Source of the DNA: Gammaproteobacteria bacterium | GTDB lineage: Bacteria; Pseudomonadota; Gammaproteobacteria; JABABF01 | Assembly: GCA_965237805.1 (NCBI GenBank) | Contig: OZ250153.1 | Span: forward strand, 224,001-288,000 | Direction: 5' to 3' | DNA: 64,000 nucleotides | Shown: one piece after another, positions 34,520 to 54,700 of the stretch | Position numbering within the stretch: position 1 is the stretch's first letter | How the letters are laid out: every line of letters starts with the position of its first letter | The notes under the pieces: generated by a model | What the model was told of the DNA's origin: nothing | The model's database searches: none | The model's input: the letters and a program-made list of their open reading frames with translations, nothing else | Translations under genes and position numbers: made by a program

Positions 34520-37500
34520 TCACCACGGGTAGTCGAACCAAGCACGCACCATACTCTCAACATTCAGCAGCTCGTCCACATCGCGTTTGATGACCGCAGC
34601 GCGACCGCAGGCGGTCGGCGAATCCAATGCCAAGCGCACCGCATACAGCACCCGAGCGTCGGCGGTTTCCACCGCACCGATACCCACACGCACCGCGCCC
34701 AATCCCTGCGCGAGCAGCCGCTTGGCGGTGCGCTCGGCACTCTCAATATTGGCATAGGCCGCCACCTGCACATACCAGCCGCGGTTGCCGCGCACTGTGT
34801 CCAAGCAAGCACAAACCGATGCGCTCGGTCGCTTGCAGGGGGATGGTATCGAGGCGGAAACCAGCTGACGGCGCGACGGCGCTGACTGTTCAGTCCGCTC
34901 AGCGCGCTCGACCCGCTGCTCCCGGCGCCGACTCGCCGTCTGCGGGTCGCGGCGCGGCGCTGTCACAGCAGCGCTGGCATCATTGAAGCGATAGCTCAGC
35001 CCGGCACCGGCAAAAGCGGCACCAGCATCGTAGTCTTCGTAGAAGATTTTCAGCGCCAAACCGCGGGCCGGGTTACCAGCCAGATCCAACTCCATGCCCA
35101 GCCCCCAGTAGAGGTCATCGTCGTTCTTGACAGCTACCGCAAACTGTCTGGACTTGGCATCGCCGCTGCGCCAGCCCAGCGCAGCATAGGGCGACCAGCG
35201 GCGATCGCGGCCATAGGGAAACCAATTCACCCCCGCCCCGGCAGCCGTTTGCTCGACGCCGCCGCAGGCGGTCGCATTGCAGACTCTGGACTCGCCCAAA
35301 TCCGCCCAAAAACCTTCCAACCACAGATCTTCCAAGGTGATGACAAAAAGCGGCAGCTTGAATGGCAGCGCGTAGTCGACGCCAACACGGTAGGCAAAAT
35401 CCTCCTGATCATCCAAGCGGAAAGTGTTGCTCTGTAGTGAGGGCTTCAAAAAACTCTGCCCCACCGCTCCGCTGATGCCGAAGTCGAGGGCAGCGGCCGT
35501 CGCAGGCAGGCTCAGGCACAGCGAGAGCAAGGCCGCACCAGCCATCGCAACGCCGCGCCGATGCCACTGGCCGCTGCGGCCAAGGCTCAGGAGCAACATC
35601 AGTGCGAGCAGCGCCAACCAAGGCAGCCCAATCGTGCCGCCACCGCCGCGGAAAACCACCACCTCGCTACCGCTCGTCGCCTGCATTCCTATCGGGCTAA
35701 AGGAGTCGGACGTGCCGCTGACATGCACACAGCCGCCATTGGACAGAGCGCCGACCGCCAGCGACAGCAGCGGGAGATAGGCCGCATCGCCGGGTGCCGG
35801 GCAAGCCCTGCCGTTCGTTCCAGCGACGCTGAGATACGGCGAGAATGTCACCGTATTGACCACGATTACCGTCGCGCTGCTCGTGCCGGGGCCACTGTCG
35901 ATCGTGATCGTGCGCTGGCTGGTATCCACCTCGCACCAACTGGCCGTCGCCGCACTGGGGCAAGTGCTGGAATAGTGATACAACTTGTCAGTGCTGATCG
36001 CTCCATCGACCGAGAACACAAAGTTGATCAAGTCGCCAGCCGAAAAACAGGCTGCGCTATCACCGCAACTGAAGGACACATCGAGTACCAAGTTATCGAC
36101 GAGGCTCACTGGCAGCGGCGCGATGCCCAGTGCGGCAAACTCGCTCAGCGGCACACGGGGCGAGTTTGCCCCCGAGCGCCGCGCCGCGATATCACCCAGA
36201 CGCAGGATGATCCCCGGCGCAACGAGCATAAAGTGCGCGTTGGCTGTGCCGGCGCTGTCGCTGAACGGCAGGGCCGAGTTGATCAATGCCAAGCCGGGCG
36301 CTTCCAGCTCATCCGGAATCAAGTCGCCGTCGCTGTCCAACTGGCCAACGCTAAAGACTCGCTGCAAACTCTCGCCCGCGCTCACGGCCCCAATGCGATA
36401 CACCGCCGCGTTGCTGCCGAAAACACTGCCTGCCACACTGTAAGTGCCAGCCAACGCCACCTCCGGCGTCGCTGGTGTCGAAGAGCCGAGCACGCTGAGT
36501 GTCCAAGTGCGAGTGCCATTCACAACGCTGCCAGACACCGAGAACTCCACCCCCGCCGCAGGATCGGCAATGCTCTGCAACAGCGCGCTGCTCCCGCTCT
36601 GGCGCAGCTGGATCACCGGTGCATAGGCCGCCACCGCACGCAGCGCTGGCTGATAAACAATGCTATAAGTCGTGCTCGCCGAACAGCTGGCAGAAAAAGA
36701 GCACAGCGACACCAGATCGCGAGACGAAAGGTCCAGCTGCACGGTGGCCGCCACCGTCAGGGTCGAGGTGCTCACCGTGTAGCCCACCGCTTGCTCCACA
36801 GCACCCGACAGCGACAGGCTGCTCGCCATCAGCGCCAAACCAGAGCTGCTGAGACTCAGCGCCACTGCCCCGTCACCGTCGGGCTGCGCTCCCAATAACT
36901 GCAATCTCATGCTGCCCGAGCCGCCCGCTATCACCGAGAGATCGCCGCCTACCGACAATATTGGCCGCAGAGCCAAGCGCCAGATCACCGCATCGCTCGC
37001 TGCGCTGCCAGCGGACAGCCAGTGTGTGCCCGACACATAGTTGTGGCTGTCCGCTGCTGGCAGCACCCCACCCTGATAGACACCAGCGCTGATATGCACC
37101 ACCGAGTCCAGCGGCAGGCTCAGCGACGCCGTGCCAGAAGTGAATGAGGCAAAGTCCGTCAGCACACCGCGCGCGTTTTGGCGCGGCAAAACCGTCGCCG
37201 CGCTACTCAACTCGTCGCGACGACCGTAGTACAGCTCCACCACATCTGGCAAGCCGTCGCTATCGGCATCCGTCGCCGCAGAGGCCCCTGTCGTGTCCGA
37301 CAGATCGCTGTTCAGATAGGCTTCCAAACTGTCCGACAGGCCATCGCCGTCCGTGTCACAGCTGCTGGCAGCGCCCGGGCAGGCCACTGTCAAACCGCCA
37401 ACAGGCATGAAATCGTATTCCAAATCGTCCGACAAGCCGTCGTTATCGGCATCTGTCAGCGAGAATGCCGCCGTGTTCAGCAGCACTGGTGCGCTGGTGG

Positions 37501-40177
37501 CCGTACTGCCACCAGCATCCTCCACTACGAGGAAGACGCAATAGGCCGTGCCCTGCGAGAGCGCGTTGAGCTGCCCGCTACCGCCGGTGGCGCTCAAACT
37601 CAGCTGGGAGGACATCGTCGTGATCGAGGCGATGGCGCAAGTCGTGCCAGTGTGGAAGGCCAGCCAATAACTGGCGGCCGTGTCGATGGCCGTCGCCGCC
37701 TCGCTCAGCTGCGCGCGATCGCTGGCCAATTCGCTGAACAGCAGGGTCGCCGAATAAGCCCGCAACTCGGCGCTGTCCACCGATAGACACGGGCTCGCCA
37801 CACTGTCCAAGTCGCCATCGCAGATGCTCGGGGGCACCACCACTCCCAACACCGTGAAACTCGTCGGAATGGGCAGGACGATTTCAGCAGTCGCCGCGAT
37901 CGTTGCCGTGGACATGATTGCCAGCGTCAATGACGTACTCGATAGCCCCGTCGGCAGAGCGGGCAGCATGACGTTCAGCGAAAATTCGATCAGCGGGACG
38001 CTGATGCCACCAATCTGCACTGTATTCGCCGGTGCCGTGAGCGTCACAGCGCCAGCGACGGGCGCGCTGCAAGGAGAAGAGGAAGACTGGCATCCCAAAA
38101 CCCCAGACACCGCGAGCTCAATGGTGGCGGACACATCATCTAAGTCGTAGACATCAAGGGTAGAAGCCGCGTCGAGCCGCAGCTCGGCGACACTTAGATA
38201 ACTGCCCGCAAACACATAGCTGCGGTTGTGCAACAGCATCGCGGGATCGACCACGCTACCACCAAAACTGGCCGAGACCGCATCCCGCGTCGCCAACCGG
38301 CTGCCCGTCACATCCATACTGAGCGTGAGATTGACCGTGTTGCTGCCAGCAGAGCTGGGGGCGGGAATGCTCGCGACCACCGTGCCATGATCCTGCGAAG
38401 AATAATAGCTAATCTCTCTGACATAGCCAAAAGTGCCCGCCTCAGATGACAGCACACAAAAGGTCTCCGCCGGGGTCTCCGCCACGCCGCTGCAATTGGC
38501 AAAGCCTGCGTTGAACCCTGTATTCAGCGCCGAAGAGCTCAGGTCTTGGTTCAGATCGAACTGCAAATTCCTATCTCGAGCGGAGATAGTCAAGCGCAAA
38601 GTATTCCGCTCGATATTGGCACCATCTCGATAGCGATAGGTGGCCGCATACGGCGTGCTAATACCATCACCAGTCAGATCAATGGTGGCAAAGGAAGCAG
38701 TGACAGTCGTGATGGACTCCAAACGCAGCTCGGTGCCCACCACCGCCATGGTGACGCTGCCGACGGTGTTTGTTGCCGTCGCAAAGCGGCTGCTGATGAC
38801 ACCGGCAGGTTGCCCAATCTCTGAGGGGCGCAGCTCCAGCATCAGCCGCGAGCCGTCGACGATATCGTTGATATTCAGAGTGCTGACGACGTCAATCACC
38901 ACCGCAAAGACCCCCAAACGCTCGCTGCCACCGTCGGCGATGACCAGCGGCGTCGCCAACCCTAGGACAACAGTCGCTTGGCTGGAAGCGCGCGCTAGGA
39001 GCCGTAAACCTACTATCCCCGTCGCCAGTGCAGGGCCCACAGCAGCGCCCCCGGCATCGATGCGGAAAAGGTGGTAATTCAGACTTGGCACAGCCCGCTG
39101 GGAGTCAGCGGGGAGGACTAAAGCACTATAAAATGGCGTAATCGCCTCACTGCCCACACTCACACGCAGCGTCACTGTACTGATGCGGGTGACAACACCA
39201 TCACCACCACCATCGGCGATGGCCAGCGCCAATATCGCTGTCAAGCTGCTCGACACGCTGTCGAGCTCGATGCTGGTGCCATAGATCGCGCTCGTGAGAT
39301 CGCTGATCGTCGCCGCATCGTTGGCTGTCGCCACCGTAGCCGTCAGCGTTGAGCCCAATACCGTGAGCACAGCGGTTGACGCACCGCTGGTATAACTGTC
39401 AACAAAGGGATCTAGCAAGTCGGTGCCATCGCCGTCAGGCACCTCGATCGCATGATAGAGCTGGCGTGCGTAGCTGGGCGCAAGCTCCAAATTGACTGCA
39501 CGCAAGCGCAGCGTCAACAAATCCGGGTACGTGCACAACTTGCACTGCAACCTGGAATTAGGATTCGACGGCGCTTTCAGAACCAATGTGTTCTGCCACA
39601 AACTCACCATATCCGTCTCACCACTCGGGGTGATCGTGACCAGCGTCGTCGAGTAGCTCGCCGACGCAAAGATATCCTCAAGCGATCCCTCACCGCTGAG
39701 CGACACGCTGGCATCCGTGCTGAAACTGCGCGCCGTCGTATCCGTCAGCTCGCCTGTGCCCGCAATGATCGCACCGCCTGCGCCCTCCACCACAAAACCA
39801 GCTGCCACACCGTGCCCATCTGCGCCCGGCACCGAATACCACGACAGCGCCATGCCCCAAGTCAGCACACCATTGGGTGTGCCCGCCCCCAATACAGTAT
39901 CACCAGCATCGGTGGAGACATGTTGCAAGCCGATATCGAGCTCAAAAGCACTGTTGTCCAAGACCGAAAAAGTGCTGTCGGTGGCAGTGGTCACCGAATC
40001 TTGGGTCGCCGATGCCCCCAATAGCAACCGATAAGTGGATGCCTCGGCTGTGCCAGACATCAATCCCAAGCACAATGCCAACGCCAACGCCAATGCCCGT
40101 GTCAGCGCCAGTGAAAAAACCGCGGCCTGCGGTGCCAATAAATCGTGGCAGCTGCGCCCTAACTGTTGCAGTTTCAT
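34520..40177 (-). CDS. Giant secreted/surface protein, paralog 1 (~1885 aa): beta-rich passenger, TSP3-like Ca-binding repeats, internal GlyGly-CTERM-like TM segment, OMP beta-barrel, SPOR domain
   Basis: GGAGA RBS before MKLQQ; signal peptide ending AEA; DxDxDGLxD repeats; GGGGTIGLPWLALLALMLLL; barrel ending GAGLSYRF; WYVQVAAY SPOR-like C-terminus. Confidence 0.85.
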   Translation of the reverse strand: MKLQQLGRSCHDLLAPQAAVFSLALTRALALALALCLGLMSGTAEASTYRLLLGASATQDSVTTATDSTFSVLDNSAFELDIGLQHVSTDAGDTVLGAGTPNGVLTWGMALSWYSVPGADGHGVAAGFVVEGAGGAIIAGTGELTDTTARSFSTDASVSLSGEGSLEDIFASASYSTTLVTITPSGETDMVSLWQNTLVLKAPSNPNSRLQCKLCTYPDLLTLRLRAVNLELAPSYARQLYHAIEVPDGDGTDLLDPFVDSYTSGASTAVLTVLGSTLTATVATANDAATISDLTSAIYGTSIELDSVSSSLTAILALAIADGGGDGVVTRISTVTLRVSVGSEAITPFYSALVLPADSQRAVPSLNYHLFRIDAGGAAVGPALATGIVGLRLLARASSQATVVLGLATPLVIADGGSERLGVFAVVIDVVSTLNINDIVDGSRLMLELRPSEIGQPAGVISSRFATATNTVGSVTMAVVGTELRLESITTVTASFATIDLTGDGISTPYAATYRYRDGANIERNTLRLTISARDRNLQFDLNQDLSSSALNTGFNAGFANCSGVAETPAETFCVLSSEAGTFGYVREISYYSSQDHGTVVASIPAPSSAGSNTVNLTLSMDVTGSRLATRDAVSASFGGSVVDPAMLLHNRSYVFAGSYLSVAELRLDAASTLDVYDLDDVSATIELAVSGVLGCQSSSSPCSAPVAGAVTLTAPANTVQIGGISVPLIEFSLNVMLPALPTGLSSTSLTLAIMSTATIAATAEIVLPIPTSFTVLGVVVPPSICDGDLDSVASPCLSVDSAELRAYSATLLFSELASDRAQLSEAATAIDTAASYWLAFHTGTTCAIASITTMSSQLSLSATGGSGQLNALSQGTAYCVFLVVEDAGGSTATSAPVLLNTAAFSLTDADNDGLSDDLEYDFMPVGGLTVACPGAASSCDTDGDGLSDSLEAYLNSDLSDTTGASAATDADSDGLPDVVELYYGRRDELSSAATVLPRQNARGVLTDFASFTSGTASLSLPLDSVVHISAGVYQGGVLPAADSHNYVSGTHWLSAGSAASDAVIWRLALRPILSVGGDLSVIAGGSGSMRLQLLGAQPDGDGAVALSLSSSGLALMASSLSLSGAVEQAVGYTVSTSTLTVAATVQLDLSSRDLVSLCSFSASCSASTTYSIVYQPALRAVAAYAPVIQLRQSGSSALLQSIADPAAGVEFSVSGSVVNGTRTWTLSVLGSSTPATPEVALAGTYSVAGSVFGSNAAVYRIGAVSAGESLQRVFSVGQLDSDGDLIPDELEAPGLALINSALPFSDSAGTANAHFMLVAPGIILRLGDIAARRSGANSPRVPLSEFAALGIAPLPVSLVDNLVLDVSFSCGDSAACFSAGDLINFVFSVDGAISTDKLYHYSSTCPSAATASWCEVDTSQRTITIDSGPGTSSATVIVVNTVTFSPYLSVAGTNGRACPAPGDAAYLPLLSLAVGALSNGGCVHVSGTSDSFSPIGMQATSGSEVVVFRGGGGTIGLPWLALLALMLLLSLGRSGQWHRRGVAMAGAALLSLCLSLPATAAALDFGISGAVGQSFLKPSLQSNTFRLDDQEDFAYRVGVDYALPFKLPLFVITLEDLWLEGFWADLGESRVCNATACGGVEQTAAGAGVNWFPYGRDRRWSPYAALGWRSGDAKSRQFAVAVKNDDDLYWGLGMELDLAGNPARGLALKIFYEDYDAGAAFAGAGLSYRFNDASAAVTAPRRDPQTASRRREQRVERAERTEQSAPSRRQLVSASIPSPCKRPSASVCACLDTVRGNRGWYVQVAAYANIESAERTAKRLLAQGLGAVRVGIGAVETADARVLYAVRLALDSPTACGRAAVIKRDVDELLNVESMVRAWFDYPW

Positions 40178-40367
40178 GGAATGTCTCCAGTGGCTAAACG
40201 CTAGATGGGCTGGCGTGCCTGCAAGAGCGCAACGACGATCACCAGCTCTTGCCAAGCGCCTATTCTAACAAATTCAGTATGCTATTCGCAATACGGCGAT
40301 GCGTAGCAAACGCGATGCTGTGCCAAAGTCGCGATCTGCCTCTGAGCGAGGAGCCTGTAGCGCTCGC

Positions 40368-41627
40368 TCAGAGGCCGGCGCGCTGCTCGATGCGCACGAT
40401 GATATTGAGCTCTTCGTCGATCAGGGCCGGAATGCCAGCCACCACGACACCAGAAAAGGTGCCGTTCTTGATCAAGGTGCGGAAGGACGCCGTAAAGCCC
40501 AGTGTGCGGAACATCATCAAGGCATCCGTTTGGTCGACATCGCCGTCGAGATCAATGTCCAAGACACTGTTGGAGCTGGCCTCAAGAGCCTCAATACGCT
40601 CAATGATATTGAGCTCTTCGTCGATCAGGGCCGGAATGCCAGCCACCACGACACCAGAAAAGGTGCCGTTCTTGATCAAGGTGCGGAAGGACTCCGTAAA
40701 GCCCAGCGTGCGGAACATCATCAAGGCATCCGTTTGGTTGACCGTGTCGCTGAGATCGATATCGAGCTGCAGGAGGTCGAATACCAGCAGTTCGACGGTG
40801 CCGCTCAGCGTGCCATCGCTCACCGTCAACACGATCGTGCTGCCGTCGCTCAGCCCCTCCAGCTGCAGGCTGAGGCTGGTGGAGGATGCCTGCGACAAGG
40901 CGCTCAGAGTCCCCATCGAGATGCTCACTGTCACCGTGTTGGGAAGCACGTAGCCCGAATCCACATTCGCGGCGGCATCGACAGCAAATATCTGCACCGT
41001 CAAGGGCGTCTCTACAAGTACCGGGGACGGCGCTGTCAGGAGCAAGGCGACGGGCAGCACGATCAACATGGTCTGTGCCACCGCGCTCAGCGAGCCGTCG
41101 ACCACTGTCAAGCTCAGCAGCTGGGCGCTAACTGCCCCGCTGAGAGACAAGCTCAGACTGCTGGCCGTGCGCGCGTGCTCCATCAGCGCACCGGATGAGG
41201 GCGTGACCGTCGCCGCGGGCGACAGGCGGTAGTCGCTGTCCTCGTTGTCGTCGTTGTCCACGCCGCGCACGCTCAGCGCAAAAGTACTATGGCCGCTCAC
41301 AGTGGCCGGCAAGCCGAGGCTCAGGCGGCGCGTTTGCACAGTGAACTCTAAGTCTAGCTGCCCCGACAGCACACCGCTGCTGAGGCTGAGGCGCAAGCTG
41401 GTGTTTTCCACCACCCCACCCCCAAGCCGCACCGTCAAGGCATTGCTCGTGCTGGCATCCACCACCCAGCGCACGGGGCCCGGCACCACTTGCGCCAGCG
41501 CTGGCGGGATGGCAGCCAGTGCCAAGGCCAAGCTCAGAGCCGATGCCATGAGCCAGAGGATGCCGTTGCCGTGCGTGGGGCAAGCCCTGCTGGCGCTGCG
41601 GGGCTCAGAGGGGGCGAATCGATGCAA
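40368..41627 (-). CDS. Secreted Ig-like protein with a tandem dockerin/EF-hand-like C-terminal repeat
   Basis: Signal peptide ending ALA-Q, Ser/Thr/Val-rich beta sequence, two copies of LDIDLxxxVxQTDALMMFRTLGF...; start uncertain. Confidence 0.75.
   Translation of the reverse strand: MHRFAPSEPRSASRACPTHGNGILWLMASALSLALALAAIPPALAQVVPGPVRWVVDASTSNALTVRLGGGVVENTSLRLSLSSGVLSGQLDLEFTVQTRRLSLGLPATVSGHSTFALSVRGVDNDDNEDSDYRLSPAATVTPSSGALMEHARTASSLSLSLSGAVSAQLLSLTVVDGSLSAVAQTMLIVLPVALLLTAPSPVLVETPLTVQIFAVDAAANVDSGYVLPNTVTVSISMGTLSALSQASSTSLSLQLEGLSDGSTIVLTVSDGTLSGTVELLVFDLLQLDIDLSDTVNQTDALMMFRTLGFTESFRTLIKNGTFSGVVVAGIPALIDEELNIIERIEALEASSNSVLDIDLDGDVDQTDALMMFRTLGFTASFRTLIKNGTFSGVVVAGIPALIDEELNIIVRIEQRAGL
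40401..40760. repeat. Intragenic tandem repeat with 204-bp period (two copies)
   Basis: gatattgagctcttcgtcgatcagggccggaatgcc... occurs at 40401 and 40605 and stays near-identical for about 130 bp. Confidence 0.9.
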
Positions 41628-44342: not shown

Positions 44343-44897
44343 GCTGGCTATCACCAAGCACTGCCCGCTCCACCGCCACCCACACCCTCGTCGCTTGCCC
44401 CGTTGCCGCTCGGCCGGTGCAGACTGGCCCCTAGGCTTGGCAACAACAGTCACCCGCTGATTGTCGCTCTATTTGCTTCTGCCAGCTCAGTCCCTCAGCC
44501 ACTCATAGATCATCGTCTTGCCGCTCATGGCGGTAAAGAGCGCATGGGTCTATGGCTGCCAGCGCACAGCACCCAGCATTGAGCCTTGATGCGAACTCAA
44601 TAGCGCCCGCAGTGCTGCTGGCTATCACCAAGCACTGCCCGCTCCACCGCCACCCACACCCTCGCCGCTTGCCCTGTTGCCGCTCGGCCAGTGCAGACTG
44701 GCCCCTAGGCTGGGCAACAACAGTCCCCCGCTGATTTGCCCGCTCTATTTGCTTCTGCCAGCTCAGTCCGTCAGCCCCTCATAGATCATCGTCTTGCCGC
44801 TCGGCGGTAAAGAGCACATGGGTCTATGGCTGCCAGCGCACAACACCCAGCATTGAGCCTTGATGCGAACTCAATATCGCCCGCAGTGCTGCTGGCT
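44343..44897. repeat. Tandem direct repeat, two imperfect copies of a 274-bp non-coding unit
   Basis: gctggctatcaccaagcactgcccgctcc starts at 44343 and 44617; gctggct recurs at 44891. Confidence 0.95.
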
Positions 44898-46560: not shown

Positions 46561-49500
46561 TCACCACGGGTAGTCGAACCAAGCACGCACCACACTCTCA
46601 ACATTCAGCAGCTCGTCCACATCGCGTTTGATGACCGCAGCGCGACCGCAGGCGGCCGGCGAATCCAATGCCAAGCGCACCGCATACAGCACGCTACCAT
46701 TATCCCTGTCCACCGCGCCGATGCCGACCCGCACCGCGCCGAAGCCCTGTGCCAAGAGCTTCTGGGCGGTACGCTCGGCGGCCAAGACATTGGCATAGGC
46801 CGCCACCTGCACATACCAGCCTTGATGGCCGCGCACTGTGTCCAAGCAAGCACAAACCGATGCGCCCGGTCGTGTGCAAGGAGAGCTCAGCGCCGAGATA
46901 TAGCTGGGCCGCTGGCTGGTGGGCTCGGGCCGCGTGCGCTCTGGGCGACGGGGGAGCTCCTCCCGACGGCGTGCGCTCGCCTGTGGGCGGCGGCTGGGCG
47001 CGGCATCCTCGGCAGCGCCATTGAAGCGATAGCTCAGCCCGGCACCGGCAAAAGCGGTGCCGAGGTCGTAATCTTCGTAGAAAATTTTCAGCGCCAAACC
47101 GCGGGCCGGGTTACCAGCCAGATCCAACTCCATGCCCAGCCCCCAGTAGAGGCCATCGTCGTTCTTGACAGCTACCCGCCACTGTCTGGACTTGGCATCG
47201 CCGCTGCGCCAGCCCAGCGAAGCATAGGGTGACCAGCGGCGATCGCGGCCATAGGGAAACCAATTCACCCCCGCCCCGGCAGCCGTTTGCTCGACGCCGC
47301 CGCAGGCGGTCGCATTGCAGACTCTGGACTCGCCCAAATCCGCCCAAAAGCCTTCCAACCACAGATCTTCCAAGGTGATGACAAAGAGCGGCAGCTTGAA
47401 TGGCAGCGCGTAGTCGACGCCAACACGGTAGGCAAAATCTTCCTGATCATCCAAGCGGAAAGTGCTGCTCTGTAGTGAGGGCTTCAAAAAACTCTGCCCC
47501 ACCGCTCCGCTGATGCCGAAGTCGAGGGCAGCGGCCGTCGCAGGCAGGCTCAGGCACAGCGAGAGCAAGGCCGCACCAGCCATCGCAACGCCGCGCCGAT
47601 GCCACTGGCCGCTGCGGCCAAGGCTCAGGAGCATCATCAGTGCGAGCAGCGCCAACCAAGGCAGCCCAACCGTGCCGCCACCGCCGTGGAAAACCACCAC
47701 CTCGCTACCGCTCGTCGCCTGCAATGCCAGCGGGCTCAAGGAGTCGGACGTAGCGCTGACATGCACACAGCCGCCATTGGACAGAGCGCCCGCCACCAGC
47801 GACAGCAGCGGGAGATAGGCCGCATCGCCGGGTGCCGGGCAAGCCCTGCCGCTCGTTCCAGCGACGCTGAGATACGGCGAGAATGTCACCGTATTGGCCA
47901 CGATTACCGTCGCGCTGCTCATGCCGGGGCCACTGTCGATCGTGATCGTGCGCTGGCTGGTATCCACCTCGCACCAACTGGCCGTCGCCGCACTGGGGCA
48001 AGTGCTGGAATAGTGATACAACTTGTCAGTGCTGATCGCTCCATCGACCGAGAACACAAAGTCGAGCAAGTCGCCAGCCGAAAAACAGGCTGCGCTATCA
48101 CCGCAACTGAAGGACACATCGAGTACCAAGTTATCGACGACGCTCACTGGCAGCGGCGCGATGCCCAGTGCGGCAAACTCGCTCAGCGGCACACGGGGCG
48201 AATTTGCCACCGGGCGCTGCGCCGCGATATCACCCAGACGCAGGATGATCCCCGGCGCAACGAGCATAAAGTGCGCGTTGGCTGTGCCGGCGCTGTCGCC
48301 GTACGGCAGGGCCGAGTTGACCAATACCAAGCCGGGCACTTCCAGCGTATCTGGAATCAAGTCGCCGTCGCTGTCCAACTGGCCAACGCTAAAGACTCGC
48401 TGCAAACTCTCGCCCGTGCTCTCGGCCCCAATGCGATACACCGCCGCGTTGCTGCCGAAAACACTGCCTGCCACACTGTAAGTACCAGCCAACGCCACCG
48501 ACGGCGTCGCTGGTGTCGAAGAGCCGAGCACGCTGAGTGTCCAAGTGCGAGTGCTATTCACAACGCTGCCAGACACCGAGAACTCCACCCCCGCCGCAGG
48601 ATCGGCAATGCTCTGCAACAGCGCGCTGCTCCCGCTCTGGCGCAGCTGGATCACCGGTGCATAGGCCGCCACCGCACGCAGCGCTGGCTGATAAACAATG
48701 CTATAAGTCGTGCTCGACGAACAGCTGGCAGAAAAAGAGCACAGCGACACCAGATCGAGAGACGCATTGTCCAGCTGCACGGTGGCCATCACCGTCAGGG
48801 TCGAGGTGCTCACCGTGTAGCCCACCGCTTGCTCCACAGCACCCGACAGCGACAGGCTGCTCGCCATCAGCGCCAAACCAGAGCTGCTGAGACTCAGCGC
48901 CACTGCCCCGTCACCGTCGGGCTGCGCTCCCAATAACTGCAATCTCATGCTGCCCGAGCCGCCCGCTATCACCGAGAGATCGCCGCCTACCGACAATACT
49001 GGCCGCAGCTCCAAGCGCCGGATCACCGCATCGCTCGCTGCGCTGCCAGAGGACAGCCAGTGTGTGCCCGACACATAGTTGTGGCTGTCCGCTGCTGGCA
49101 GCACCCCACCCTGATAGACACCAGCGCTGATATGCACCACCGAGTCCAGCGGCAGGCTCAGCGACGCCGTGCCAGAACTGTTGGTGAATGAGGCAAAGTC
49201 CGTCAGCACACCGCGCGCGTTTTGGCGCGGCAAAACCGTTGCCGCGCTACTCAACTCGTCGCGACGACCGTAGTACAGCTCCACCACATCTGGCAAGCCG
49301 TCGCTATCGGCATCCGTCGCCGCAGAGGCCCCTGTCGTGTTCGACAGATCGCTGTTCAGATAGGCTTCCAAACTGTCCGACAGGCCATCGCCGTCCGTGT
49401 CACAAGCAGCGTCCGGGCACACTGTCAAACCGCCAACAGGCATGAAATCGTATTCCAAATCATCCGACAGGCCGTCGTTATCGGCATCGGTCAGCGAGAA

Positions 49501-52500
49501 TGCCGCCGTGTTCAGCATCACCGGGGCGCTGTACACCGTACTGCCACCGGCATCGCGCACTGCGAGGAAGACGCAATAGGCCGTGCCCTGCGAGAGCGCG
49601 TTGAGCTGCCCGCTACCGCCGGTGGCGCTCAAACTCAGCTGGGAGGACATCGCCGTGATCGAGGCGATGGCGCAAGTCGTGCCAGTGTGGAAGGCCAGCC
49701 AATAACTGGCGGCCGTGTTGATGGGCGTCGCCGCCTCGCTCAGCTGCGCGCGATCGCTGGCCAATTCGCTGAACAGCAGGGTCGCCGAATAAGCCCGCAA
49801 CTCGGCGCTGTCCACCGATAGACACGCGTTCGCCACACTGTCCAAGTCGCCATCGCAGATGGTCGGGGGAACCAGATCGGCGCTGAGGGTGAATTCGCTC
49901 GGCGCGGGGATGCTGCTGTAGGCGCTCCCAGACTGGAGGGCGATCGTCAAACTCAGGGTGCTGCTGAGCAGCCCGCTCGGCAACTGCGCAAAAGCAAAAC
50001 CTCCACTGGAGGGTGCCGTGAAACTGATCACGCCGCGCTCAGCAGCAGCAGCCACCGTCACCATCGCTGTCGTCGTCGCACTCAGCGGAGAGAGCGGCGT
50101 ACAGCCGCCGCCATCGCTGGTGCAGGATAGCTGCGGTGTCACTGTCAGCGATAGTCCGGATGGATCGCGATCGTAGACCTTGGCCGTGGAATCGTTGAAA
50201 GCGGGGCTAGTGCCGCTCAAATCAACGTTCAGAAAAGCGTGATAAGTGCCACTAAAGCTGTAACTGGCGTCGTGGATCAGCGAGCTGCCCGCCACCGCGA
50301 TGCCCGTGCTGCTGTTCCGCGCCGTCACCGCCGCCAAGGTCTCCAAACTGTCGGCGCTAACATTCATGGTGACCGTCACTTGGTTCTCAGCAGTCGTGAA
50401 CACCCTTTGACGACCATCAATCGGGGAGAAATACAGATTCCGGACATGGCCAGATGACAGGATCTCCTCCTGGTGCTCCACATCCGTATCACCGCTCACA
50501 ACGAGAGCCTGCGCAGACAGATCCGCGTTCAGATCAAGCTGCCCGCTGGCATCTCGGCTACGCAGGTTCAACACAACAACATTGGCAGTCGACGCCGCGC
50601 CGCTGCCGGCGCGGAAGTCGGTTTGCACCGCAAAACCTGCAGCGGTGCTGCCAGTGACGCTGGGGGCACTGCCAACACTGACGCTGTCGATCGCCACCGT
50701 CGTGCCAATCACCTCCATGCTGAGCCTGTTCTCCAGCGTGCCGCCACTGAAAGCGCCACTGCCGAAGACGCCAGCAGTTGCCGGTGATACCCGCAGCCGC
50801 AGCTGCCCTGCATCCACCGCATCGCTACTGAGCAATGCGCTGTGGTTGGCCACCGCAGCCGTCAACAGCAGCTGGGCCGTGCCGCCCTCGGCAATGCTCA
50901 GCGGCGTGCCGAGCGTCAGGCGAATCATCTGCTCGCCAGAGGACACGCGCGCCAAGGCCGTGACTGTCGCCGCCAGCACTGCCCCCGTGGCGTTGCCAGC
51001 GGCATCCGCCGCATACAGATTCAAAGTCAGCGCCGGCACCACACCGCGCGTCAAAGCGCTGTCGATGCCAGCAACGATGGGTGCAATGCCGCTGTCTTCA
51101 GCCAACAGACTCAATAACACGGAACTGATCGCGACACCCATACTGTCCCCCGCACCCTCGGCAAAACTCAGCGCCATCACCCGCTGCTCTGTGCTCCCCA
51201 AGACATTGCTCAGCGTCGCCTGGCCGATGTCGATCAAACTCACCGTCGTGGGCACCACTCCCAACACCGTGAAACTCGTCGGAGTAGGCACTGTCAGGGC
51301 GATGCCACCAGTCGCCGTGGACATGATTGCCAGCGTCAATGGCGTGTCCAATAGCCCCATCGGCAGAGTGGGCAGAGTGATGGCCAGCGAAAATTCGATC
51401 AGCGGGACGTCGATGCCGTCAATCTGCACTGTATTCGCCGGTGCCGTGAGCGTCACAGCGCCAGCGACGGGCGCGCTGCAAGAAGAATCTAACTCGCATC
51501 CCAAAACCCCAGACACCGCGAGCTCAATGGTGGCGGACACATCATCTAAGTCGTAGACAGGAAGGATAGTAGCCGGGCCGGTCTGCAGCTCGGCGAAACT
51601 CAGATAACTGCCCTCAAACATATAGCTGCGGTCGTGCAACAGCATCGCGGGCTCGACCGCGCCACCACCAAAACTGGCCGAGACCGCATCATGCGTCTCC
51701 AACCGGCCGCCCGTCACATCCATACTGAGAGTGAGATTGACCGTGTTCTCGAAGACAACATGGGGGGAGGGAATGCTCGCGACCACCGTGCCATGATCCT
51801 GCAAAGAATAATAGCTAATCTCTCTGACATAGCCAAAAGTGCCCGCCTGCAATGACACCGCACAACGGGTCTGCCCCCCGCCGCCGCTACAACCGGAAAA
51901 ACCTGTGTTGAACCCTGCATTCAGCGCCGAAGAGCTCAGGTCGCTGTCCAGATCGAGCTGCCCTTTACTATCTCGACTGACCACAGTCAAGCGCAAAATA
52001 TTCTGCGCGACAGTGACACCACCATCTCGGTAGCGATAGGTGGCCGCATACGGCGTGCCAATACCATCACCAGTCACATCAATGGTGGCAGAGGAAGGGA
52101 CAGTCGGCATGGAGTTCAAACGCAGCACGGTGCCCACCACCGCCATGGTGACGCTGCCGACGGTGTTTGTTGCCGTCGAAAAGCGGCTGCTGATGACACC
52201 GGCAGGCTGCACAATCTCTGAGGGGCGCAGCTCCAGCATCAGCTGCGAGCCGTCGACGATATCCGCTCTACTCTGCAGCCCATCCAAGGAATCCGGAAAC
52301 GCAAAGAGCCCCAAACGCTCGCTGCCACCGTCGGCGATGACCAGCGGCGACACCAACGTGACAACAAGCGATTGGGTGGGTCTGCGCACACTGAGCGAGT
52401 CAGCAGTCAGCGTCGCCAGTGCAGCACCCACAGCAGTGCCCCCGGCATCGATGCGGTGAAGGTTGAAATCCAGACTTGGCACAGCATGCTGGGAATTTTC

Positions 52501-53559
52501 GGGGAGGGCTAAAGCACTATAAAGTGGCGTGACCACCGCACTGCCCACACCCACACGCAGCGTCATTGAACTGATGTGGGTGTCAATGCCATCACCACCA
52601 CCATCGGCGATGGCCAGCGCCCATATCGGTGTCGCGCTACTCGACGCGGTGTCGAACTCGATGCTGGGGCCATAGATCTCGCTCGTGATATCGCTGATCG
52701 TCGCCGCATCGTTGATCGTCGCCACCGCAGCCGTCAGCGTTGAGCTCAATCTCGTGAGCGTAGCAGCTGACACATTGTTGGTATAACTGTCAACAGAGGC
52801 AACCAGCAAGTCTGAGCCATCGCCGTCAGGCACCCTGACCGCATGATAGAGCTTGCGTGCGTAGCTGGGCGCAGACTCCAGATTGACTGCACGCAAGCGC
52901 AGCGTCAACAAATCCGGGTGCCTGCAAAACTTGCACTGCAACATGGAAGTAGCATTTTGCGCTGCCAGAACCAATGTGTGCTGCCACAAACTCACCATAT
53001 CCGTCTCACCACTCGGGGTGATTGTGACCAGCGTCGTCGAGTAGAGCACAAAAGGAAAGATATCCTCAATCGATCCCCCACCGCTGAGCGACACGCTGGC
53101 ATCCGTGCTGAAACTGCGCGCCGTCGTGGACGTCAGGAATACTGTGCCCGCAATGATCGCACCGCCTGCGCCCTCCACCACAAAACCAGCTGCCACACCG
53201 TGCCCACCAGTGCCCGGCACCGAATACCACGACAGCGCCATGCCCCAAGTTGTCACAAGATTTTCGTCACTCGCCCCCAATGCAAAGTCACCAGCATCGG
53301 TGGAGACATGTTGCAGACCGATATCAAGCTCAAAAGCACTGTTGTCCAAGACCGAAAAAGTGCTGTCGGTGGCAGTGGTCACCGAATCTTGGGTCGCCGA
53401 TACCCCCAATAGCAACCTATAAGTGGATGCCTCGGCTGTGCCAGACATCAATCCCAAGCACAATGCCAACGCCAATGCCCGTGTCAGAGCCAGTGAAAAA
53501 ACCGCGGCCTGCGGTGCCAATAAATCGTGGCAGCTGCGCCCTAACTGTTGCAATTTCAT
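46561..53559 (-). CDS. Giant secreted/surface protein, paralog 2 (2332 aa); same architecture as 34520-40177 plus an extra internal module
   Basis: Long stretches near-identical to paralog 1; about 1.4 kb extra at ~49861-51250. Confidence 0.88.
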   Translation of the reverse strand: MKLQQLGRSCHDLLAPQAAVFSLALTRALALALCLGLMSGTAEASTYRLLLGVSATQDSVTTATDSTFSVLDNSAFELDIGLQHVSTDAGDFALGASDENLVTTWGMALSWYSVPGTGGHGVAAGFVVEGAGGAIIAGTVFLTSTTARSFSTDASVSLSGGGSIEDIFPFVLYSTTLVTITPSGETDMVSLWQHTLVLAAQNATSMLQCKFCRHPDLLTLRLRAVNLESAPSYARKLYHAVRVPDGDGSDLLVASVDSYTNNVSAATLTRLSSTLTAAVATINDAATISDITSEIYGPSIEFDTASSSATPIWALAIADGGGDGIDTHISSMTLRVGVGSAVVTPLYSALALPENSQHAVPSLDFNLHRIDAGGTAVGAALATLTADSLSVRRPTQSLVVTLVSPLVIADGGSERLGLFAFPDSLDGLQSRADIVDGSQLMLELRPSEIVQPAGVISSRFSTATNTVGSVTMAVVGTVLRLNSMPTVPSSATIDVTGDGIGTPYAATYRYRDGGVTVAQNILRLTVVSRDSKGQLDLDSDLSSSALNAGFNTGFSGCSGGGGQTRCAVSLQAGTFGYVREISYYSLQDHGTVVASIPSPHVVFENTVNLTLSMDVTGGRLETHDAVSASFGGGAVEPAMLLHDRSYMFEGSYLSFAELQTGPATILPVYDLDDVSATIELAVSGVLGCELDSSCSAPVAGAVTLTAPANTVQIDGIDVPLIEFSLAITLPTLPMGLLDTPLTLAIMSTATGGIALTVPTPTSFTVLGVVPTTVSLIDIGQATLSNVLGSTEQRVMALSFAEGAGDSMGVAISSVLLSLLAEDSGIAPIVAGIDSALTRGVVPALTLNLYAADAAGNATGAVLAATVTALARVSSGEQMIRLTLGTPLSIAEGGTAQLLLTAAVANHSALLSSDAVDAGQLRLRVSPATAGVFGSGAFSGGTLENRLSMEVIGTTVAIDSVSVGSAPSVTGSTAAGFAVQTDFRAGSGAASTANVVVLNLRSRDASGQLDLNADLSAQALVVSGDTDVEHQEEILSSGHVRNLYFSPIDGRQRVFTTAENQVTVTMNVSADSLETLAAVTARNSSTGIAVAGSSLIHDASYSFSGTYHAFLNVDLSGTSPAFNDSTAKVYDRDPSGLSLTVTPQLSCTSDGGGCTPLSPLSATTTAMVTVAAAAERGVISFTAPSSGGFAFAQLPSGLLSSTLSLTIALQSGSAYSSIPAPSEFTLSADLVPPTICDGDLDSVANACLSVDSAELRAYSATLLFSELASDRAQLSEAATPINTAASYWLAFHTGTTCAIASITAMSSQLSLSATGGSGQLNALSQGTAYCVFLAVRDAGGSTVYSAPVMLNTAAFSLTDADNDGLSDDLEYDFMPVGGLTVCPDAACDTDGDGLSDSLEAYLNSDLSNTTGASAATDADSDGLPDVVELYYGRRDELSSAATVLPRQNARGVLTDFASFTNSSGTASLSLPLDSVVHISAGVYQGGVLPAADSHNYVSGTHWLSSGSAASDAVIRRLELRPVLSVGGDLSVIAGGSGSMRLQLLGAQPDGDGAVALSLSSSGLALMASSLSLSGAVEQAVGYTVSTSTLTVMATVQLDNASLDLVSLCSFSASCSSSTTYSIVYQPALRAVAAYAPVIQLRQSGSSALLQSIADPAAGVEFSVSGSVVNSTRTWTLSVLGSSTPATPSVALAGTYSVAGSVFGSNAAVYRIGAESTGESLQRVFSVGQLDSDGDLIPDTLEVPGLVLVNSALPYGDSAGTANAHFMLVAPGIILRLGDIAAQRPVANSPRVPLSEFAALGIAPLPVSVVDNLVLDVSFSCGDSAACFSAGDLLDFVFSVDGAISTDKLYHYSSTCPSAATASWCEVDTSQRTITIDSGPGMSSATVIVANTVTFSPYLSVAGTSGRACPAPGDAAYLPLLSLVAGALSNGGCVHVSATSDSLSPLALQATSGSEVVVFHGGGGTVGLPWLALLALMMLLSLGRSGQWHRRGVAMAGAALLSLCLSLPATAAALDFGISGAVGQSFLKPSLQSSTFRLDDQEDFAYRVGVDYALPFKLPLFVITLEDLWLEGFWADLGESRVCNATACGGVEQTAAGAGVNWFPYGRDRRWSPYASLGWRSGDAKSRQWRVAVKNDDGLYWGLGMELDLAGNPARGLALKIFYEDYDLGTAFAGAGLSYRFNGAAEDAAPSRRPQASARRREELPRRPERTRPEPTSQRPSYISALSSPCTRPGASVCACLDTVRGHQGWYVQVAAYANVLAAERTAQKLLAQGFGAVRVGIGAVDRDNGSVLYAVRLALDSPAACGRAAVIKRDVDELLNVESVVRAWFDYPW

Positions 53560-53786: not shown

Positions 53787-54700
53787 TCAATAGATCGCTT
53801 CCAAATACGGGGTGTAGCTGCTACGCGTGGATAGCTGTACCACTGCGGCCACAAAGCGTTCCGCCACCACATCGATTTCCGGGCCAACGATGCTCGCCGC
53901 CTCAAGGGACAGGGCAGCTACCGACACCATCAGGGTTGAAGCTGCTGTGGTCGCTCTGCGGCCAGTAGCGCAGCGACAGTGTGGCGATGTGATTGGCACT
54001 CGAAGTGCTGGACAGCAGCGGTGCCACCACGCGCCCGAGATCAGTATTGATCGTCAGCAGATCCCCCAGATCGCTGAAGTCGACATCGCTGTCCACAACG
54101 CCCGCGTCATTCTCGCCCTGCAGCGTATCAGTCAATGCTGCGCCGCCGTCCGCGCTGCGTGCCACCACCGTGGTCGAGGAGAAGTTTGCCCGCAAGGCTA
54201 GGCGCGTGGCCACCACATCCACACTGAGCTCCAGACTGCCAGAGCGCGAGCCGTCCATCACTGTCAGCAGCACTGACTCACCGTCGCTGAGCCCGCTCAG
54301 GCTCAGCGTGATCGTGTTTGCTGTCCGTGCGGCGAGCTCGTTGAGCGTCCCCACCGAGGACAGCACGGTCGCCGAGGCAGGCAGGACATAGTTGCTATCC
54401 AGCTCGCCAATATTGGTCTCGCCCGGCACCGTCAACACGAAGCTCTCGCCCGCCACCACCGTGCTCTTCAGCGAAAAGCTGCTGTTCTCGGCCACTTGGT
54501 AGCTGGCAGTGGTGCCGCTGGGCAGGCATTGGAAGTCTGGCCAATGAGCCCTCCGCTCCCTCGAAGGACAGCGTATCCGCATAGGGCAGCACCACGCCTT
54601 GATAGGCCGCGGTCGTCGTGGCATCGGCGATGGGCGATGCCGCCAGTGCGACGGCTGTGGCCAACGCTGTCAACAAGCCACCGAAAAGCGAGCCCCGCAC
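53787..54700 (-). pseudogene. Frameshifted secreted Ig-like protein related to 40368-41627
   Basis: Signal peptide in the 54395-54700 frame; SNYVLP..VGTL..LSLSGLSDG..LTVMDGSRSG in the 53902-54624 frame matches SGYVLP..MGTL..LQLEGLSDG..LTVSDGTLSG of the partner at 40.8-41.0 kb; tail in a third frame. Confidence 0.65.

Follow-up and report, generated by a model that had tools for sequence, protein, structure and literature searches.

The TprC and TprD proteins of Treponema are described as near-identical envelope paralogs with variation in short discrete regions, most of it amino-acid-altering; Tpr proteins are porin-like barrels of about 600 aa, and their variable regions, which prediction places on external loops, differ between many strains (PMC3656149). 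In WSP of Wolbachia, a bacterium that faces no vertebrate adaptive immunity, a conserved framework alternates with hypervariable regions shaped by point mutation, recombination and diversifying selection. WSP is an eight-stranded barrel with four loops and 515 alleles, and for the wsp hypervariable regions the import of segments by recombination between strains has been proposed (PMC2843615; PMC4534519). The Opa proteins of Neisseria, about 11 small barrels, have two surface-exposed hypervariable regions, a phase-variable CTCTT repeat and inter-copy recombination (PMC4534519). The GlyGly-CTERM sorting signal is defined as an extreme C-terminal element (PMC3237569). Here, two giant paralogous genes (copies A and B) are described from a stretch of 64,000 nucleotides (the window; contig OZ250153.1, positions 224 001 to 288 000) of the genome of a Gammaproteobacteria bacterium (GCA_965237805.1). 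Their N-terminal regions differ mainly by amino-acid replacements gathered in eleven short patches.

The reading towards which we lean is that A and B are functional paralogs that are mostly kept alike, with their N-terminal patches under diversifying selection and with no dedicated mutator or cassettes. On this reading both copies would be functional, as paralogs within a giant envelope protein family restricted to one lineage. The protein would run from a signal peptide through an orphan, mostly-β N-terminal region, Ca-binding TSP3-like repeats and an internal GlyGly-CTERM-like segment to a putative small outer-membrane barrel, followed by a SPOR peptidoglycan-binding domain. The bulk of the pair would have been kept similar by inter-copy gene conversion, or by a recent duplication plus one recombination, and N-terminal point substitutions and small in-frame indels would have been fixed by positive (diversifying) selection focused on about eleven short segments. 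As the outcome, A and B would present differing local surfaces on a common framework, with no mutator or cassette system involved.

Clustered differences between the two copies

Copies A and B were compared by global protein alignment and by DNA alignment, each from its ATG. The DNA homology begins 17 nt 5′ of the ATG, including the ribosome-binding site GGAGA, and ends 13 nt past the stop codon. The flanks of the two copies are unrelated to each other and both lie within one 1.73-Mb contig. A tblastn search of this single-contig genome returned A and B as the sole copies of the gene, and the further paralogs that the earlier note had proposed to look for were thus not found. Features of both copies are listed in Table 1.

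In the N-terminal region, 582 of 768 residues are identical (76%). Identity over the rest of the alignment is 694/744 in the C-terminal passenger, 199/208 in the transmembrane (TM) plus β region and 104/149 in the linker plus SPOR tail, the last being the most diverged part of the pair at silent sites. The earlier note, which described passenger and barrel as almost unchanged, overlooked this diverged tail as well as the extra module of B. The N-terminal DNA alignment contains 290 mismatches in 2292 aligned nucleotides. Compared with 2000 shuffles, there were 95 adjacent-mismatch pairs (shuffled 36.5 ± 5.2, maximum 54) and the index of dispersion was 2.26 (shuffled 0.87 ± 0.10, maximum 1.24); up to 12 consecutive residues differed (shuffled 4.4 ± 0.9, maximum 9). 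The clustering of the differences is real and well beyond chance.

Patches were called where at least five of seven residues differed. The eleven patches so obtained span 7-16 codons each and retain 22 of 104 identical residues (21%) and about 53% nucleotide identity; the N-terminal framework outside them is identical at 560 of 664 residues (84%). All seven peptide pairs quoted in the earlier note were reproduced in the alignment, its intervals 37900-40050 and 51300-53430 corresponding to aa 43-759 of A and aa 44-753 of B. Its picture of patches in a scaffold stands as regards clustering; its wording 'fully different' and 'near-identical scaffold' is too strong given the identities above, and 'hypervariable' cannot be claimed from two sequences.

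Table 1. Positions in the window of copies A and B, their regions and the eleven patches (sequences are given as A / B).
Feature	Copy A	Copy B	Strand	Remarks
Copy A	34520-40177		minus	1885 aa from the ATG shared with B; open frame extends to TTG at 40255
Copy B		46561-53559	minus	2332 aa from ATG at 53559
N-terminal variable region	37835-40177	51250-53559	minus	aa 1-781 of A, aa 1-770 of B, partners of each other; orphan sequence
Extra module of B		49873-51249	minus	aa 771-1229, ~450 aa, ~31% identical to preceding module
GlyGly-CTERM-like internal segment	35489-35647	47527-47685	minus	GGGG, hydrophobic helix, basic cluster, second helix ending PATAAA
β-strand region, ~170 aa, putative outer-membrane barrel	34985-35488		minus	ends ...LSYRF; strands pLDDT 56-71; ω 0.37 (TM plus barrel)
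Diverged Arg-rich linker and most of SPOR domain	34607-34969	46648-47010	minus	ω 0.36; 23/65 silent fourfold differences
Patch 0	39863-39883	53251-53271	minus	GTPNGVL / SDENLVT; 13/21 nt differ
Patch 1	39551-39577	52942-52965	minus	KAPSNPNSR / AA-QNATSM
Patch 2	39368-39388	52759-52779	minus	SGASTAV / NNVSAAT
Patch 3	38972-39019	52366-52410	minus	GIVGLRLLARASSQAT / LTADSLSVRRPTQSL; 23/45 nt differ
Patch 4	38867-38911	52264-52308	minus	VFAVVIDVVSTLNIN / LFAFPDSLDGLQSRA; 25/45 nt differ
Patch 5	38600-38620	51997-52020	minus	A-NIERNT / GVTVAQNI
Patch 6	38564-38587	51961-51984	minus	ISARDRNL / VVSRDSKG
Patch 7	38441-38485	51847-51882	minus	Cys-bounded; VAETPAETFCVLSSE / GG---GQTRCAVSLQ; segment in neither B module 2 nor the same-genus relative G001
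Patch 8	38342-38362	51748-51768	minus	APSSAGS / SPHVVFE
Patch 9	38153-38179	51559-51585	minus	RLDAASTLD / QTGPATILP; 9 replacement, 0 silent differences
Patch 10	37868-37900	51283-51309	minus	IAATAEIVLPI / --GGIALTVPT

Excess of replacements in the N-terminal region

By pairwise maximum likelihood (ML; GY94/F3x4), the ratio of replacement to silent substitution (ω) in the N-terminal region is 1.63 (likelihood-ratio test against ω = 1, p = 0.0014). Nei-Gojobori counting (NG86) gave proportions of silent and replacement differences of pS = 0.105 and pN = 0.146 and an ω of 1.43 (bootstrap range 1.13-1.85), with 0.25% of bootstraps at or below 1. The claim that the pair diversifies by amino-acid replacement is borne out by both estimates. 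When dN/dS was taken region by region, the differences proved to be clustered and replacements to exceed silent changes, which is opposite to the even or mostly synonymous spread that the earlier note had named as evidence to the contrary. The ML values of ω elsewhere in the same genes, 0.37 for TM plus barrel and 0.36 for linker plus SPOR, show that purifying selection operates normally there.

Within the patches pN is 0.54 and pS is 0.28, and ω is 3.9 by ML; restricting the estimate to the six ungapped patches gave 3.4. The fractions of differences at codon positions 1, 2 and 3 are 0.50, 0.58 and 0.33 in the patches, compared with 0.23, 0.17 and 0.33 in the tail. Random codon pairs gave a pS of 0.70 ± 0.05 (minimum 0.54). 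The patch value lies well under this, so the patches are diverged homologous DNA, and replacement by unrelated DNA was rejected. Silent third-position changes in replaced and kept codons, respectively, were 10/33 and 1/15 in patches, 6/33 and 15/335 in the framework, and 3/20 and 10/417 in the C passenger.

Both genes appear from their sequences to be functional, with reading frames kept open. Applied at random, 520 substitutions would be expected to create 10.0 ± 3.0 stop codons, and none of 2000 trials was stop-free; A and B have none. All 16 internal indels between A and B are multiples of three. When polarized with G001, a relative in the same genus, as outgroup, the patch changes divided as 10 and 10 between the copies and the framework changes as 10 and 13. 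Evolution of one copy alone was rejected because the changes are symmetric, although most sites are unpolarized, G001 agreeing with neither A nor B at 58 of the 78 in patches. Two frames kept open over about 13 kb, with an N-terminal excess of replacements, make A and B the likeliest interface with the interaction partners of the bacterium, and the patches the residues of first interest.

Silent divergence and history of the pair

Silent sites were counted as third positions of fourfold codon boxes. Differences were found at 13/437 such sites in the C passenger, 18/315 in the N-terminal framework, 3/53 within five codons of a patch, 11/48 inside patches and 23/65 in the linker plus SPOR tail. 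Silent divergence is therefore 3-6% in the backbone and 35% in the tail, about tenfold higher (tail against C passenger, p = 5.5e-14). The diverged tail sits between near-identical flanks, the final 28 codons having one difference. A single duplication ageing uniformly is insufficient to explain divergence this uneven, and at least one recombination or gene-conversion event is needed; the recombination component suggested in the earlier note is supported to this extent.

The data cannot decide between two candidate histories, an old duplication whose backbone was homogenized by gene conversion and a recent duplication whose tail was replaced. The extra module of B is present neither in A nor in G001, whose single one-module copy is syntenic with copy B. 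That A lacks this old module and that the G001 copy stands in synteny with B would fit the old-duplication history. Among patch codons that keep the same amino acid 1/22 differ, compared with 19/76 in the tail, so the patches are more than old islands that conversion left untouched.

Read-level evidence

Unitigs were taken from two runs of one sample, X1 and X2, which is probably the source of the assembly. They carry both the A and the B versions and the junction of B with its 5′ flank, and both junctions of the B extra module were seen as loose unitig ends. One X2 unitig of 230 nt (38531-38760, over patches 5 and 6; depth 31) is neither A nor B. It has 36 mismatches to A and no gaps, with A letters at 38565-38567 and B letters at 38585-38677; recombination or strain variation may have produced it. 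Run X3, which has the same species label and comes from a different study, had no matching unitigs over the region.

Alternative explanations

Selection might be dispensed with if the patches were unconstrained, gene conversion erased differences elsewhere, and segments that had diverged too far blocked conversion and drifted on. We consider this unlikely, though it deserves real weight. It agrees with values of ω in the framework and C passenger that do not differ from 1, with the differing positions being those least conserved in distant modules, and with silent divergence that is raised in patches relative to the framework (p = 0.0004) and is like that of the old tail (p = 0.21), which is what islands that escaped conversion should show. 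It is opposed by the ω of the whole N-terminal region, which is significantly above 1 and thus beyond pure neutrality, by the undiverged same-amino-acid codons inside the patches, and by patch flanks that show the framework silent rate. In neutral simulations of such a mosaic under the same calling rule, none of 300 runs at tP=3, and likewise none of 300 at tP=5, attained the observed pN/pS, as against 1% at tP=2; the combination of a pN of 0.54 with a pS of 0.28 was not reproduced. The patches could instead be alternative short segments that circulate among strains and were acquired through recombination, without having evolved in place. Sharp patch borders, raised silent differences limited to replaced codons, the tail as an example of foreign or old sequence between near-identical flanks, and the 230-nt unitig that mixes letters of both copies all point this way, the last with the reservation that Logan unitigs cannot show linkage. 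The patches nevertheless retain about half of their nucleotide identity and a pS far under that of random pairs, and no relative of the N-terminal 790 aa, whether another allele or a fragment, was found among 1.84 billion representatives, in a collection of 5.8 billion proteins (near or shorter lengths) or in metagenome contigs; such shuffling is in our judgement improbable.

Programmed diversification, whether by a diversity-generating retroelement (DGR), silent-cassette gene conversion, invertible segments or compensated frameshifts, has in its favour nothing beyond the appearance of the patches, which are short and dense in a conserved setting, and we give it hardly any credence. No reverse transcriptase match (PF00078) was found in the genome, which is 97.4% complete (as a control, 3 of 14 genomes had matches), and mismatches are spread about equally over all four bases with no adenine specificity; a DGR was rejected on these grounds. 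The gene is present in two copies only. No further copies or fragments that could serve as donor cassettes or a template repeat were found in the genome, where non-self patch matches never exceed 19 nt. Cassette-based antigenic variation of the pilE/pilS, vlsE, msp2 or tprK type was accordingly rejected, silent donors that match the variable segments not having been found in the genome. Small inversions were rejected because patches compared with their reverse complements match at chance level (identity 0.24-0.38), as were compensated frameshifts, translations in the other frames scoring at most 3 of 7-16 residues. An assembly artefact, with two strain alleles or a collapsed repeat rendered as two loci or with a chimeric consensus, is very improbable. 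The unitig totals of 1.0 million for X1 and 9.1 million for X2 do give the source the appearance of a mixture, and a third local variant exists. The two copies nevertheless have unrelated flanks within one contig, the unitigs link the 5′ end of B to its own flank and show both extra-module junctions, A-type and B-type unitigs occur at comparable depth in both runs, and the A/B differences are in frame and codon-structured. The collapse or chimera that the earlier note had kept in view thus found no support in either run.

Several points weigh against diversifying selection on the patches. Since amino-acid difference was the criterion for calling patches, their ω is inflated, and neutral simulation at tP=1 does match the pN/pS ratio (44% of runs; pN/pS about 2), although pN is then just 0.39, half as many codons are called, and the observed pair of values is not reproduced. 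Outside the patches, neither the framework ω of 1.25 (p = 0.24) nor the C-passenger ω of 1.10 (p = 0.74) differs from 1, which would be equally expected under relaxed constraint. Silent third-position changes gather in replaced codons throughout (counts above), and all regions, barrel and tail among them, have more adjacent mismatches than expected, so that multi-nucleotide mutation, micro-recombination or repeated hits at a few fast codons possibly contribute. The comparison covers two sequences, A and B, the only ones that exist.

Structural analysis did not assign the patches to loops. AlphaFold was used to model aa 311-782 of A from a four-row alignment, only four modules being alignable, and the mean pLDDT is 41. 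In this low-confidence model the patches are 67% coil and the framework 53% (circular-shift p = 0.09). Seven of eight patches touch an indel site in the distant-module alignment, such sites being common (p = 0.21), and the composition of the patches equals that of the framework, with a fraction of loop-forming residues of 0.34 in both. The proposal of exposed, CDR-like loops on a fixed β-sandwich is thus unsupported. Patch 7 is a Cys-bounded insertion that is not present in distant modules, and from its sequence it does look like a disulfide loop. We infer that the patches may be solvent-exposed recognition segments and that the N-terminal part may reach the cell surface, with host, ligand or phage as candidate selecting agents.

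Protein architecture and sorting-like signal

A Pfam scan of the protein returned SPOR over the cut-off and a weak TSP3 repeat and nothing else, and an NCBIfam scan matched no family. The SPOR domain (PF05036) scored 26.4 and 25.1 bits (cut-off 21), and its fold matched that of the RlpA SPOR domain with a TM-score of 0.80 (probability 1.00). All five family members share one C-terminal layout: a GGGG motif precedes a hydrophobic helix and basic residues, after which come another helix that resembles a signal peptide, a β region (about 170 aa) whose last residue is aromatic, a linker rich in Arg/Lys and the SPOR domain. The C-terminal model (pLDDT 58.6) has two helices and about ten strands, together with a linker that is disordered and a SPOR fold. 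A PDB profile search of the C-terminal part returned SPOR only (E of about 0.01) besides spurious M4 peptidase matches.

For the β region, with its approximately ten strands, there was no Pfam match, and a fold search gave weak matches to OmpA, OprG and Tsx (probability 0.16-0.30). The match to the AIDA-I transport unit was at chance level (0.06). A classical type V autotransporter was rejected, since there was no autotransporter Pfam hit at E ≤ 0.1 and the β region, at about 170 aa, does not end the protein as a 12-strand translocator barrel would but has the linker and SPOR domain after it; the terms 'passenger and barrel' of the earlier note are not supported in an autotransporter sense.

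The second-best genome match to the GlyGly_CTERM model (TIGR03501) falls on the GGGG motif of B, at 10.4 bits, under the cut-off of 15.5; no canonical GlyGly-CTERM protein over the cut-off was found in the genome. About 370 residues, comprising the second helix, the β region and the SPOR domain, lie downstream of the motif. Membership in GlyGly-CTERM was rejected, the signal being internal and the score under the cut-off, though the tripartite motif is present. A rhombosortase is encoded in the genome at G000:C1:1038004-1038459 (118.8 bits, cut-off 84), and no target gene was found beside it. Rhombosortases over the cut-off occur in 11 of 41 genomes, namely in all four with the giant family and in seven of the 37 without. 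Processing of the giant protein by rhombosortase is at this stage only a hypothesis. An extended version, doubtful in our estimation, is a split-after-export envelope system not described before. Rhombosortase would cut the internal GlyGly-CTERM-like signal and signal peptidase the next helix, freeing a surface-displayed, lipid-anchored N-terminal giant part from an OmpA-like/SPOR anchor; the eleven patches would be determinants of partner specificity, for example for a host or phage.

The signal peptides of A (40076-40099) and B differ as ALALALAL and ALALAL by one in-frame 6-nt unit of the GCGTTG type, so this length change is unable to switch the frame. The G+C content of the A and B N-terminal regions (0.58-0.59) is lower than that of the rest of the same genes (0.62-0.67).

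Family distribution

The giant family was found in four of 41 related genomes searched, all metagenome-assembled genomes of one family of uncultured Gammaproteobacteria. In the ESM Atlas the N-terminal region scored 0.81, which is chance level. A sister genus (G002) has two giant open reading frames (ORFs), one of 5111 aa and one of more than 2860 aa within the fetched stretch (G002:C1:10000-29999 and 1975000-1994999), which share the C-passenger domains of the A/B family and contain many internal repeats. These paralogs are about 42% identical to each other and do not constitute a comparable replicate pair. Genomes measure 1.7-2.1 Mb in the family of the organism, a small and uncultured one within the Gammaproteobacteria, and about 13 kb of the genome studied here is devoted to two orphan giant envelope genes.

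Neighbouring sequences

Immediately upstream of A, a 419-aa ORF (40368-41627, minus strand) includes 204 nt that are directly repeated (40386-40763, 91% alike) and has a dockerin match below threshold (22.5 bits, cut-off 22.9); judged by its sequence, it may encode another Ca-binding envelope protein. The gene upstream of B (53817-54312, minus strand) matches residues 1-167 of the 402-aa neighbour in G001 in two frames that abut at about 53934 and has the appearance of a remnant broken by a frameshift; there is a more complete paralog at G000:C1:1014230-1015009. At 44343-44897, in the spacer between a pdxB-like dehydrogenase gene and an aminotransferase gene, a 274-nt unit is tandemly duplicated (2.0 copies, 94% alike) and has no Rfam match. 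An Rfam scan of 33000-56000 found no family.

Comparison with described systems

A and B resemble TprC and TprD in being closely similar complete paralogs with clustered short regions of mostly non-synonymous difference. Unlike the Tpr proteins, they have 1900-2300 aa and vary in an N-terminal region of orphan sequence, the loops are putative and the evidence comes from one genome. WSP is a single small protein with allelic variation, whereas the variation described here lies between two paralogs in one genome. As with Opa, there are multiple complete paralogs per genome; unlike Opa, there is no frame-shifting repeat, the sole repeat difference being the signal-peptide unit. Dense substitutions in short parts of a ligand-binding-type protein recall diversity-generating retroelements, from which the A/B genome differs in having no reverse transcriptase, template repeat or adenine specificity. 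With GlyGly-CTERM/rhombosortase sorting (PMC3237569; PMC6219818), A and B share a Gly-rich motif, a hydrophobic helix, basic residues and a rhombosortase in the same genome; they differ in that the signal is internal, has about 370 residues after it and scores under the model cut-off. On this comparison, the pattern of variation is one already known from the Tpr, Opa and WSP surface proteins of host-associated bacteria, and the protein family is new. Because the pattern repeats these systems, the interest of A and B lies in the new family and its odd C-terminal architecture rather than in the mechanism of variation.

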